Assembly (NCBI GenBank): GCA_004213405.1
Contig: SGYR01000001.1
Coordinates: forward strand, 80,859 to 144,858
Source of the DNA: Candidatus Actinomarinales bacterium
GTDB taxonomy: Bacteria > Actinomycetota > Acidimicrobiia > Actinomarinales > Actinomarinaceae
DNA: 64,000 nt
Reading direction: 5' to 3'
Shown here: one piece after another, positions 2,088-60,837 of the stretch
How positions within the stretch are numbered: the stretch's first letter is position 1
How the letters are laid out: each line of letters starts with the position of its first letter
The notes under the pieces: generated by a model
Databases searched by the model: none
What the model saw: the letters and a program-made list of their open reading frames with translations, nothing else
What the model was told of the DNA's origin: nothing
Position numbers and translations under genes: made by a program

Positions 2088-2978
2088 TTAAAGCGAATTG
2101 ATAAATAAATTATTTTTTGAAAGATCAATGCTTACATATATATAGGAAATCCACAAAAAATCGGCAATTGCTAGGTGCAATATGCTTAAAGGCAGAACTA
2201 TATTGGATAAAACATTTATGACTCCCAGAAATACAGCAATAATTATTAATATTTGTAATGGTTTAACGCCTACATTATATTTTTTTCTAATCCCAGTTGC
2301 ATAAACGTATAAAACTATCGATAGTGTTGAGGAAATAATCGGGTGTAAAATTCTTAATCTGGTCAACACTTCGGATGTTCTGTCAAAATCTGCTAAAAAC
2401 CCTTCAACAAATGAAGTGCTTGGAAATAAGACATCAGCTAAAGCAGTGATTGAGCCAGTTGCTCCACTTAGAAGAAATAAAGAAGAAATTAACAAAAAGT
2501 TTTTGTTGAACATATTTTTTATGTTCTGAAGATCATCTTGGAGTATTTTATATAATATTGCATAACTCCCTAGCAAACCAAAAGTGTTTACTAAATGAAT
2601 TGGAACTGCAATGACTCTTGGGAGTGAACTATTAAGACCTACCCATTCAAAAATGACAATTACTGCTCCGATTAGCGCTTCAAAAATTACGAAAAAAGTA
2701 AGATAATTAGTTACTATTCTTACCAAAGAGTCTTTTTGAAATTTCCTAGTTTTTGCAAAAATTATCAAAGTAACAACTAATAAAACTCCACTTACGGAAC
2801 GATGGGAAAATTCAATTAATTCTGAAGTATCTGATAATGCAGGAATTATCTTTCCTTTACATGTAGGCCAAGTAGCTCCACATCCATCTCCAGACCCGGT
2901 AGCCCTAACAAATGCACCAGCCAAAATTGAAGCTATTGATAATAAAAGACCTGCTTTTGCGTAAGACTCGACTTTCAC
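2088..2978 (-). CDS. ctaA: heme A synthase (COX15/CtaA family)
   Basis: 296 aa polytopic membrane protein with an N-terminal GSGDGCGATWPTC cysteine pair and conserved His residues. Lies near ctaB and ctaCDEFG. Confidence 0.75.
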   Translation of the reverse strand: MKVESYAKAGLLLSIASILAGAFVRATGSGDGCGATWPTCKGKIIPALSDTSELIEFSHRSVSGVLLVVTLIIFAKTRKFQKDSLVRIVTNYLTFFVIFEALIGAVIVIFEWVGLNSSLPRVIAVPIHLVNTFGLLGSYAILYKILQDDLQNIKNMFNKNFLLISSLFLLSGATGSITALADVLFPSTSFVEGFLADFDRTSEVLTRLRILHPIISSTLSIVLYVYATGIRKKYNVGVKPLQILIIIAVFLGVINVLSNIVLPLSILHLAIADFLWISYIYVSIDLSKNNLFINSL

Positions 2979-3577
2979 AGTAAATTATCTAAAAATGTTC
3001 TAAGTGAATCCCAAAATAAGGAGAATGAATTATAAATAACAATACAAAGCACCAGAAGCAAAGCTGTTGTTTTGAGATTTCGAGTGAAATAAAAACCAAT
3101 TTGTTTTTGATCATATATATATGGCTCTTCATCGGAAAACTCAAGGAGGTTAGTAGTTTGTAGGGGTTTTGTAAGATATTCTTCTAAAGTTTCTTCTTTT
3201 ACCTCAGAAACCTCAACTGATTCATAATCAAAATCATTAAGTGTTGATTCTTTTCTTTGGAAGGTATTTCGAAGTTTATCTATTCTAGTTTGTTTAATTT
3301 GCACATCATCATTTTTTATTGAGAAGAGACTTTCTTCAGTTAATAATGAACCTACTTCTTTTAATTGTTCCGTTGAGAACCCATCAAGCGTATGTGTTAT
3401 TTCGGTACCTAACAATCCTTCAAGAGCATTAATAATTTTTTTATCCGTAGGAAAACTCGTTCCAGCTTCCCATTGCTTAACATCTTTTACTTTTACCCCT
3501 GTAAAAGAAGCAATCTGTTTATTACTTAAGCCCCTATCCGCTTTAAGTCTTTTAAATTCTATTTGAAAATTATTCAT
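2975..3577 (-). CDS. XRE-type helix-turn-helix protein with C-terminal membrane anchor
   Basis: I start it at internal ATG 3577..3575 (MNNFQIEFKRLKADRGLSNKQIASFTGVKVKDVKQWEAG...), because the track's longer ORF (to 3715) runs through the tRNA-Sec gene. Acidic linker, then a single TM (TTALLLVLCIVIYNSFSLFW). Its stop overlaps the ctaA start by 4 nt. Confidence 0.6.
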   Translation of the reverse strand: MNNFQIEFKRLKADRGLSNKQIASFTGVKVKDVKQWEAGTSFPTDKKIINALEGLLGTEITHTLDGFSTEQLKEVGSLLTEESLFSIKNDDVQIKQTRIDKLRNTFQRKESTLNDFDYESVEVSEVKEETLEEYLTKPLQTTNLLEFSDEEPYIYDQKQIGFYFTRNLKTTALLLVLCIVIYNSFSLFWDSLRTFLDNLL

Positions 3578-3628
3578 TACTTTAATTCTATTCAATATAA
3601 TTTTTTTTATATAACTAGTCTTAAGTAC

Positions 3629-3720
3629 GGAGGTGAATGAGCGCCTGGTGGGCTCCACAGTCTTCAAAACTGTTGAAAGGTGTAAAAGTCTTTGGCAGGT
3701 TCGATTCCTGTCCACCTCCG
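3629..3720 (+). tRNA. selC: tRNA-Sec (anticodon TCA)
   Basis: GGAGGTG...CACCTCC acceptor. Anticodon arm ACAGT-CTTCAAA-ACTGT, so anticodon TCA. Long variable arm (AAAGGT/GTCTTT stem). T arm GGCAGG-TTCGATT-CCTGTC. Acceptor plus T stems total 13 bp, as in bacterial tRNA-Sec. About 92 nt with no encoded CCA. Confidence 0.85.
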
Positions 3721-3755
3721 CTACTTTATAAGATATACATGTTTAATATAGAAAA

Positions 3756-4085
3756 ATGGCAGAAGAAAAAAGCTTATTAGATGAGGTGCAAGAAGCACCT
3801 GCTGGATTCAAGGTTTCTCCAGGTTGGAGAGTTGGTCACTTAAAAGAAGAGACAATTACTAAGTCAGGGCTTCTTGTACCAGCTGGTAGTGAAAAAACTT
3901 CAGAAGCACTTCCTCTTATTGATGTTGATACAGGACAGCAGTTCTGGGCTGTAGCTAGTGGTGCATGGAAATTTATCTGGCCTCCAACTGGAAAAGTAGT
4001 TTTAGCTGTTAGAGAATCTCAAATTATTGCTGAAGAAGAGCTTTCAAAATCTTCTGAAAATGGCCAATTACCTATAATGAAATAA
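3756..4085 (+). CDS. hypothetical protein, possibly a divergent Cpn10/GroES-like fold
   Basis: 109 aa. The segment KEETITKSGLLVPAGSEKTSEA resembles the GroES mobile-loop region, and the tail VVLAVRESQIIAEE resembles the GroES C-terminus. The similarity is weak and judged by eye only. Confidence 0.35.
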   Translation: MAEEKSLLDEVQEAPAGFKVSPGWRVGHLKEETITKSGLLVPAGSEKTSEALPLIDVDTGQQFWAVASGAWKFIWPPTGKVVLAVRESQIIAEEELSKSSENGQLPIMK

Positions 4086-29216: not shown

Positions 29217-30241
29217 CTACTAATAATATTTATTTTTTGATTATATCTATCAGTTATATTTCCAATTTCTTCTACAAAAACCCCATATATTTTCTCAATT
29301 TCTATCAAATCTATATCTGTATCAGCAGGTACAGAAATTAATAATCCTCCACTGGTTTGAGCATCTGCTAATAAAAGTGCCTCGTCTTGATTCTCGAATG
29401 AGATAAAGTCTTTTACTGAGTCAAAATTTCTCTGACTTCCTGATGGATATATGCCACTATGAAAATAATTTTTTGCATACTCAATGAGTGGAACTTTATC
29501 GAATATCAAATTTGCTGATAATTTTTCATCAATTAACATCTCACTAAGGTGGCCAAGAAGTCCAAAACCAGTAACGTCTGTAATTGCGTTTGCATTGAGG
29601 TGCTTTGCAACTTCAAGTCCTGCATCATTTAAGGTTGTCATTACATTTGTTACCTGATTTATTGCTTCTTCATCGGCGACCCCTTTTTTTATTGCGGTTG
29701 AAATAATTCCAGAACCGAGAGGCTTGGTTAGAAAAAGTTTATCTCCATTTTTAATATTCGTTTTTGTATAGATTTTTTCATTAACGATACCTGTTACAGC
29801 AAAACCATATTTTGGTTCTTTGTCATCAATACTGTGCCCTCCAACAATATTGCAATTTGCAGATTTCATTACATCTGCACCTCCCTTAATAACATCTGAT
29901 AAAACGTCAAAACCTATGTCTTCTCTTGGCCAACTAACTAACTGTAGAGATGAAATAGGTGCACCTCCCATTGCATAAATATCAGATAATGCATTTGTTG
30001 CGGCAACCCTACCCCAGTCATAAGGGTTATCTAATATAGGAGTAAAAAAATCAACAGTTTGCACAATTTTCATGCTGTTTCCTAGATCAATAACTGCGCC
30101 GTCATCTGGATTTTCTAAACCAACTAAGACTTCAGAATTGTTTGAATTATTTTGTTTTGATTGCTTCAGAACCTGAGCAAGCTCTCCTTGGGAGAGTTTA
30201 CATGCTCAACCTGAGCCATGAGAATACTCTGTGAGTCTCAC
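29213..30241 (-). CDS. selD: selenide, water dikinase (selenophosphate synthetase), Sec-containing form; UGA at 30208..30206 read as selenocysteine
   Basis: The track lists only 29213..30073. The same frame extends upstream through one TGA: (GTG)RLTEYSHGSGUACKLSQGELAQVL...GLENPDDGAVIDLGNS-MKIVQTVDFFTP... The U falls where E. coli SelD has Cys17 (SHGAGCGCK), and Lys20 is conserved. A strong SD (AAAGGGGGG) precedes GTG 30241. Total 342 codons. Confidence 0.9.
30174..30208 (-). promoter_or_regulatory. candidate SECIS hairpin starting at the selD UGA
   Basis: mRNA UGAGCA-UGUAAA-CUCUCC-CAA-GGAGAG-CU-UGCUCA. The outer 6-bp stem includes the UGA, and there is an inner 6-bp stem. I read both complementary arms directly from the sequence. 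Confidence 0.55.
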
Positions 30242-60604: not shown

Positions 60605-60837
60605 CCAAGATCTTCTTCAATTAATTTAAGAATTTCTCCATCTTCTGAGTGTCTTCCAAGTTCTTTTTTTGAAAATAATAATTTTTCATTTAAATGAAAT
60701 TCAAATACTCCACCACCGCTTGGAATTAGTTGAATGTTCGTAACTTTGTTACCGTAAACTTCTAAGATATCTTCAATCGTGCCAACTGCACGAGGTGTGT
60801 AGTTTCAAACTACACAAAATTCAAGTTTGATTTCCAT
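60601..60837 (-). CDS. SelW-like / Rdx-family selenoprotein (CxxU redox motif); UGA at 60807..60805 read as selenocysteine
   Basis: Absent from the ORF track because of the in-frame TGA. My translation is MEIKLEFCVVUNYTPRAVGTIEDILEVYGNKVTNIQLIPSGGGVFEFHLNEKLLFSKKELGRHSEDGEILKLIEEDLG*. It fits the Rdx pattern (IEYC..U....RA...L......V.LIP..GG.FEV...G.L..SK...GR.PE) with U in the CxxU position. The 237-nt span is exactly in frame. Confidence 0.85.
60778..60816 (-). promoter_or_regulatory. candidate SECIS structures at the SelW-like UGA
   Basis: Two structures. (1) A perfect 9-bp palindrome UGUGUAGUU-UGA-AACUACACA with the UGA as its loop (60796..60816). (2) A hairpin U-CGUGC-AGUUG-GCACG-A that begins after an 11-nt spacer downstream of the UGA (60778..60792). 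Confidence 0.5.

Follow-up and report, generated by a model that had tools for sequence, protein, structure and literature searches.

Positions 3629-3720 (+) of the window, by which we mean the whole 64-kb stretch of DNA analysed here, are almost certainly selC, the single tRNA-Sec gene of the Candidatus Actinomarina genome under study (G000). ARAGORN called tRNA-SeC(tca) at 3629-3721 (+) as the sole tRNA of the 64-kb window. The Rfam cmscan search independently matched RF01852 (tRNA-Sec) at 3629-3719 (+), scoring 75.4 bits where the gathering score is 47 (E 1.2e-13). The RF01852 match spans the full model (positions 1-91), no other Rfam family rose above threshold in the window, and within the tRNA clan the best Rfam model for 3629-3720 was tRNA-Sec. 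The agreement of two independent programs, together with the covariation described below, identifies the gene as a tRNA-Sec. The original prediction of a tRNA-Sec on this strand and interval is thereby borne out, both programs agreeing on it with anticodon UCA and neither ARAGORN nor the covariance models returning a Ser or Leu isoacceptor. The sequence is the commonest tRNA-Sec type of the genus (36 of the loci collected, some genomes being counted more than once), and its exact 45-nt 5' half is present in 36 species-representative genomes assigned to Candidatus Actinomarina, the OCS155 cluster or Acidimicrobiia.

Folded without constraints, the plus strand adopts this long-arm cloverleaf at an MFE of -33.3 kcal/mol (z -2.5). 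The long-arm fold, the anticodon loop CTTCAAA with anticodon TCA and the 6-bp variable stem, all of which had been predicted, were recovered at the positions listed in Table 1, and the cloverleaf obtained by MFE folding is also supported by covariation. The variable stem is made of A-U, A-U, A-U, G-C, G.U and U.G pairs. The UCA anticodon loop is invariant in 36/36 distinct tRNA-Sec sequences, and the discriminator, G3720 (G73), is invariant among those aligned. CCA is not encoded and GCTA stands in its place. GCTA follows the acceptor stem in this copy and in most of the genus; GCCA is encoded by one genus group (L076 type) and by most class-level copies.

Table 1. Features of the selC locus and of the selenoprotein genes in the window.
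Feature	Position	Strand	Basis or remark
selC (tRNA-Sec gene), G1 to discriminator G73	3629..3720	+	ARAGORN, RF01852, covariation, MFE fold
Acceptor stem	3629-3635/3713-3719	+	
D arm, 6 bp with bulged G, loop UGGU	3639-3655	+	
Anticodon arm	3656-3674	+	
Anticodon TCA (reads UGA)	3664..3666	+	in loop CTTCAAA, 3662-3668
Variable arm	3676-3693	+	6-bp stem 3676-3681/3688-3693
T arm	3694-3712	+	
Divergent neighbour gene, true extent, 200 aa	2975..3577	-	homologue starts
Spurious 5' extension from GTG 3715, non-coding	3578..3715	-	homologue starts
AT-rich spacer, 51 nt, between divergent 200-aa gene and selC	3578..3628		
selD (selenophosphate synthetase), GTG start 30241, 342 aa	29213..30241	-	TIGR00476 381.5 bits, cut-off 125
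Hairpin starting at selD UGA, candidate bacterial SECIS	30174..30208	-	-16.6 kcal/mol, z -2.2
SelW-like (Rdx family) gene, 78 aa	60601..60837	-	PF10262 58.7 bits

tRNA-Sec genes gathered from the genus and the wider class gave 36 distinct sequences. Twenty-six of these, each of 92 nt, form a gapless alignment (A2); the other ten (L112, L114, L115, L116, L120 and L122-L126) differ in length and were left out because the alignment columns had to stay fixed. Changes on both sides were found in 13 of the 31 cloverleaf pairs of A2, and all five helices contain at least one compensatory pair, examples being columns 6:86 (U-A/C-G), 29:45 (A-U/C-G), 31:43 (A-U/G-C) and 69:81 (A-U/G-C). Compensatory changes affect five of the six pairs in the variable stem and three of the six in the D stem, and double changes in the anticodon stem and the T stem are seen even within the genus alone. 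Standard pairs occupy 93-96% of the cells of A2, a share that falls to 42-57% once the 3' partners are shifted by 1-3 columns, and the observed covariation score was reached by 0/500 shuffles. The outermost (sixth) layer of the anticodon stem, at A2 columns 28/46 (window 3656/3674), is a C.U mismatch in 26/26 Acidimicrobiia sequences, so that this stem is effectively 5 bp.

The acceptor plus T-stem domain comprises 12 bp in ordinary tRNAs versus 13 bp in bacterial tRNA-Sec. In every Actinomarina copy the distance from the T loop to the discriminator G73 is 13 nt, indicating that the 13-layer acceptor/T stack is real. The original prediction of a 13-bp acceptor-plus-T stack therefore stands with regard to the number of layers; all of them are standard pairs only if the stack is drawn as 7+6 (13/13, versus 12/13 as 8+5). 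In the 8+5 drawing the eighth acceptor layer is A8.C84, which is never a standard pair in 26/26 sequences although both A and U occur at position 8. In the 7+6 drawing G66-C84 can pair in 26/26 sequences, and the MFE fold also picks 7+6 for the acceptor/T domain. The Rfam 9+4 and the classical 8+5 drawings were rejected, as each leaves an A.C mismatch. Covariation does not separate 9+4, 8+5 and 7+6, columns 66, 83 and 84 being invariant in A2. Since columns 66 and 84 never vary, the support for 7+6 comes from pairing potential and not from covariation, and judged by pairing potential the stack appears to fit 7+6 better than 8+5.

E. coli selC has a UCA anticodon, G73, a long variable arm, a 6-bp D stem with a 4-nt loop and a 13-bp domain arranged as 8+5. 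The Actinomarina gene shares the anticodon, the discriminator, the long variable arm, the D stem and loop sizes and the 13-bp domain, and its T arm (GCAGG UUCGAuU CCUGU) is near-identical to the E. coli one. The two differ in the eighth acceptor layer, which is a Watson-Crick pair in E. coli selC, giving 8+5, and A.C here. Deviations from 8+5 in bacterial tRNA-Sec have been catalogued earlier (PMC5330540), and a mycobacterial (Actinomycetota) tRNA-Sec with a 7-bp acceptor stem, a 6-bp T stem and the 5' sequence GGAGGCG was described in July 2026 (RNA Biol, PMC13449736). The gene studied here has in common with that mycobacterial variant the 5' end GGAGG(C/U)G and a 13-layer domain best drawn as 7+6. 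In contrast to it, the present gene belongs to the class Acidimicrobiia and does not encode CCA in this copy; set against the same variant, it also has a bulged G in the D stem and the C.U sixth anticodon-stem layer (26/26). The 7+6 partition was seen across the Acidimicrobiia sequences sampled here. It could conceivably be an ancestral trait of all Actinomycetota, perhaps one that co-evolved with the divergent SelB of these lineages, an idea that we regard as rather unlikely. Were it correct, SelB, SelA or RNase P would recognise the tRNA in a way that departs in its details from the E. coli 8+5 paradigm.

Three Acidimicrobiia relatives (G166, G097 and G110) carry tRNA-Sec copies (L116, L123 and L126) in which the T loop and the presumed discriminator are just 12 nt apart. 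Either these copies have a 7+5-type stack or their acceptor stem is off by one base; they resemble the 12-bp stack variants listed in the Secmarker paper.

The original prediction held that the tRNA and two UGA-containing genes in the window together mean that UGA is read as Sec. In selD, a single in-frame TGA (30208-30206) encodes U12 within the motif GSGUACK, at the catalytic Cys/Sec position, and the candidate SECIS hairpin starts at this codon. In the SelW-like gene, U11 of the CVVU motif lies at TGA 60807-60805; a small hairpin at 60777-60793 is not significant alone (z 0.2). Both frames are intact round one UGA at the catalytic position. A naive genome scan for TGA-interrupted frames gave mostly off-frame noise, the only true sites being selD 30208 and SelW-like 60807. 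These sequence features support selD and the SelW-like gene as real selenoprotein genes and uphold the predicted reading of UGA as Sec.

Elsewhere in the genome TGA serves as an ordinary stop, ending 100/437 long frames (23%), and prfB (RF2) is present with 449.7 bits. UGA is thus recoded locally and not reassigned. Alternatively, the gene might encode a tRNA without specificity for Sec, either one of class II (Ser or Leu) or a general opal suppressor or code-reassignment tRNA. In favour of this, tRNA-Ser and tRNA-Leu also possess a long variable arm, and the genome is small and AT-rich, of a kind known for UGA reassignment. Such an identity is nonetheless extremely improbable given the stop use and the presence of RF2, the verified in-frame UGAs at Cys-equivalent catalytic positions, tRNA-Sec as the best clan model in Rfam at 75.4 bits, and the tRNA itself, which has 13 layers instead of 12, a 6-bp D stem with a 4-nt loop and G73. 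By analogy with the established bacterial pathway, the tRNA-Sec would be charged with serine by SerRS, for which the identity elements of tRNA-Sec are the discriminator G73 and the long variable arm. SelA would then convert the charged tRNA, and SelB, in place of EF-Tu, would bring it to the few UGA codons that have a SECIS hairpin behind them; at all other UGA codons RF2 would read stop. The prfB gene (L129, at C5:7656-8696 of G000) is a single uninterrupted frame of 361 aa and apparently lacks the programmed +1 frameshift site that is common among bacterial prfB genes.

The genes selA and selB had been noted to lie outside the window, and profile searches with Pfam SelA, SelB-wing_3, TIGR00474 and TIGR00475 found neither of them in the whole 602-kb assembly of 23 contigs. 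The best 'selB' match in G000, a 399-aa EF-Tu-like frame beside an EF-G-like frame, is not a true selB. The assembly has 602,127 bp and ~34% G+C and is ~70% complete by marker genes; it contains just 14 tRNA genes, which indicates that it is truly fragmentary. A relative of the same genus (G027), 95-98% identical to G000 in DNA sequence, has overlapping selA and selB genes at ~16.6-19.6 kb of its contig C2 (L030 9612-12598). Its SelA scores 387 bits with TIGR00474 (cut-off 268). Its SelB matches TIGR00475 over the full length with 189 bits, below the 242-bit NCBIfam equivalog cut-off, and contains a SelB-wing_3 domain with 38.6 bits, above the Pfam cut-off. More generally, SelB of these lineages scores below the NCBIfam and KofamScan thresholds.

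The alignment of G000 contig C15 to the G027 locus runs to the very end of C15, 1.4 kb short of selB. On the selAB side, 21 kb or more of the G027 contig are without a counterpart anywhere in G000; on the opposite side of the locus, contigs C15 and C7 of G000 continue collinearly. Because C15 ends at the locus and the neighbouring genes there are missing too, the absence of selA and selB is most probably an assembly gap, and we infer that both genes exist in this organism, unassembled, next to the contig end. According to the original prediction, a genome without selA and selB would speak against a tRNA-Sec. The assembly does lack both genes, whereas with respect to the biology of the organism the objection very probably fails, since the assembly break would explain the absence. 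In the genus as a whole, tRNA-Sec with at least 70 bits was found in 56/61 genomes (G000 and 60 others), and among the 60 others selA scored over the cut-off in 50 and the SelB wing domain was detected in 46. In genomes at least 90% complete, the counts were 11/11 for tRNA-Sec, 11/11 for selA and 10/11 for the SelB wing.

Loss of selA and selB by the lineage would make selC a decaying relic or imply a non-canonical reading of UGA, for example by Ser-tRNA-Sec without SelA and SelB. The failure to find the two genes in the 602-kb assembly agrees with such a loss, as do the fairly complete assemblies of two relatives, G009 (one contig) and G010, in which selC and a Sec-selD are present and selAB was not found. 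In G010, however, a 911,943-bp contig ends within the gene upstream of selA, and in G009 both selAB flanking genes are missing as well; a true loss deduced from these two genomes was rejected, both assemblies being broken or missing at the locus. A loss is also hard to reconcile with a C15 that stops 1.4 kb from the selB position of G027, a relative of 95.4% nucleotide identity, with the flanking genes missing too, with a tRNA that is identical to the commonest type of the genus and covaries properly, with selD and SelW-like frames that are intact round a single catalytic UGA, and with the occurrence of selA in all 84 complete genomes of a recent preprint (bioRxiv 10.64898/2026.04.03.716425). 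We consider loss very unlikely and retain the assembly gap as the explanation. The same preprint places selA at the edge of a hypervariable region, which would explain recurrent assembly breaks there.

In the list of open reading frames, a minus-strand ORF with a GTG start (2975..3715, 246 aa) runs over selC. Homologues of the neighbour protein start 51-54 nt upstream of the first base of the tRNA in 73 related loci, which places the real start of the gene at ATG 3577. This makes the extension to 3715 spurious, as had been suspected. The resulting 200-aa protein has a hydrophobic C-terminus and a weak N-terminal HTH (XRE-like) signal (HTH_31/HTH_3, E ~0.01-0.02), below the cut-off. The promoters of both the 200-aa gene and selC presumably lie in the 51-nt spacer between them. 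No consensus sigma-70 site was found in 3578-3628, and a promoter and terminator scan round the tRNA gave none at the expected place. The spacer contains a TTTTTATAyAAyTAsTCTTA block that is kept in two relatives with the upstream flank shown.

Housekeeping genes surround selC, with sigma-70, ctaA and the 200-aa HTH-like gene on one side and a 109-aa orphan, hflX, gnd and pepN on the other. Among 77 Actinomarina-type loci (some genomes being represented twice), hflX lies 3' of selC in 76 and the 200-aa gene lies 5' of it in 73, the remainder being cut by locus ends. Wherever flank is available in these 77 loci, the neighbours of selC are constant, namely the 200-aa gene and ctaA on one side and hflX on the other. 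The distance between selC and selD is ~26 kb in this genome and likewise in G009 and G010. The orphan ORF between selC and hflX (3756-4085, +, 109 aa) has no Pfam match and occurs in 43 of the 77 related loci; in those without it, hflX starts ~50 nt past the tRNA. Its absence elsewhere marks the orphan as a lineage-specific insertion or a fast-evolving small gene.

tRNA-Sec was found in 102 of 151 sampled Acidimicrobiia genomes, representing 49 of 81 genera. As tRNA-Sec is so frequent among Acidimicrobiia, inheritance is the simplest origin of the trait, with Actinomarina having kept it through genome reduction. The Sec system of the genus was described in April 2026 in 'Actinomarina, resolved' (bioRxiv 10.64898/2026.04.03.716425), which reported selC (UCA), selA, selD and a divergent selB in 84/84 complete genomes, together with ~five selenoproteins per genome, Sec-SelD among them, and explicitly discussed the cost argument for a 1.1-Mb genome. 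The original prediction had called the trait worth documenting, a view made out of date by that report for all 84 complete genomes. The preprint treats the same genus and gene, and our selC and Sec-selD and the selA and selB of the genus agree with it. The preprint analysed complete genomes, whereas ours is a fragmentary assembly without selAB. The preprint also suggests that selC changes position, maybe moved by tRNA-targeted integration. In contrast to such mobility, selC has fixed neighbours wherever flank is available in the 77 loci collected here, and in this set the constant neighbourhood does not fit well with tRNA-targeted integration moving selC.

The selC gene described here is ordinary: its tRNA class is well known, and the gene has already been reported. 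In a genus whose complete genomes measure ~1.1 Mb, a very small free-living bacterium of the sea retains a whole Sec system for a handful of proteins, and ORF-based annotation can mask a tRNA beneath a spurious ORF. Neither point is new for this genus, as both have been published. The practical value of the analysis lies in the corrected annotation of selC, of the true start of its neighbour and of the two selenoprotein genes. It also carries a caution for users of this assembly, in which the absence of selA and selB is very probably an assembly artefact and not biology. Two tRNA-Sec genes with full scores (71-75 bits) occur in some Acidimicrobiia, ~11 kb apart in G167 (C1:2182998-2183089 and 2193852-2193943) and on C12 and C47 in G158.
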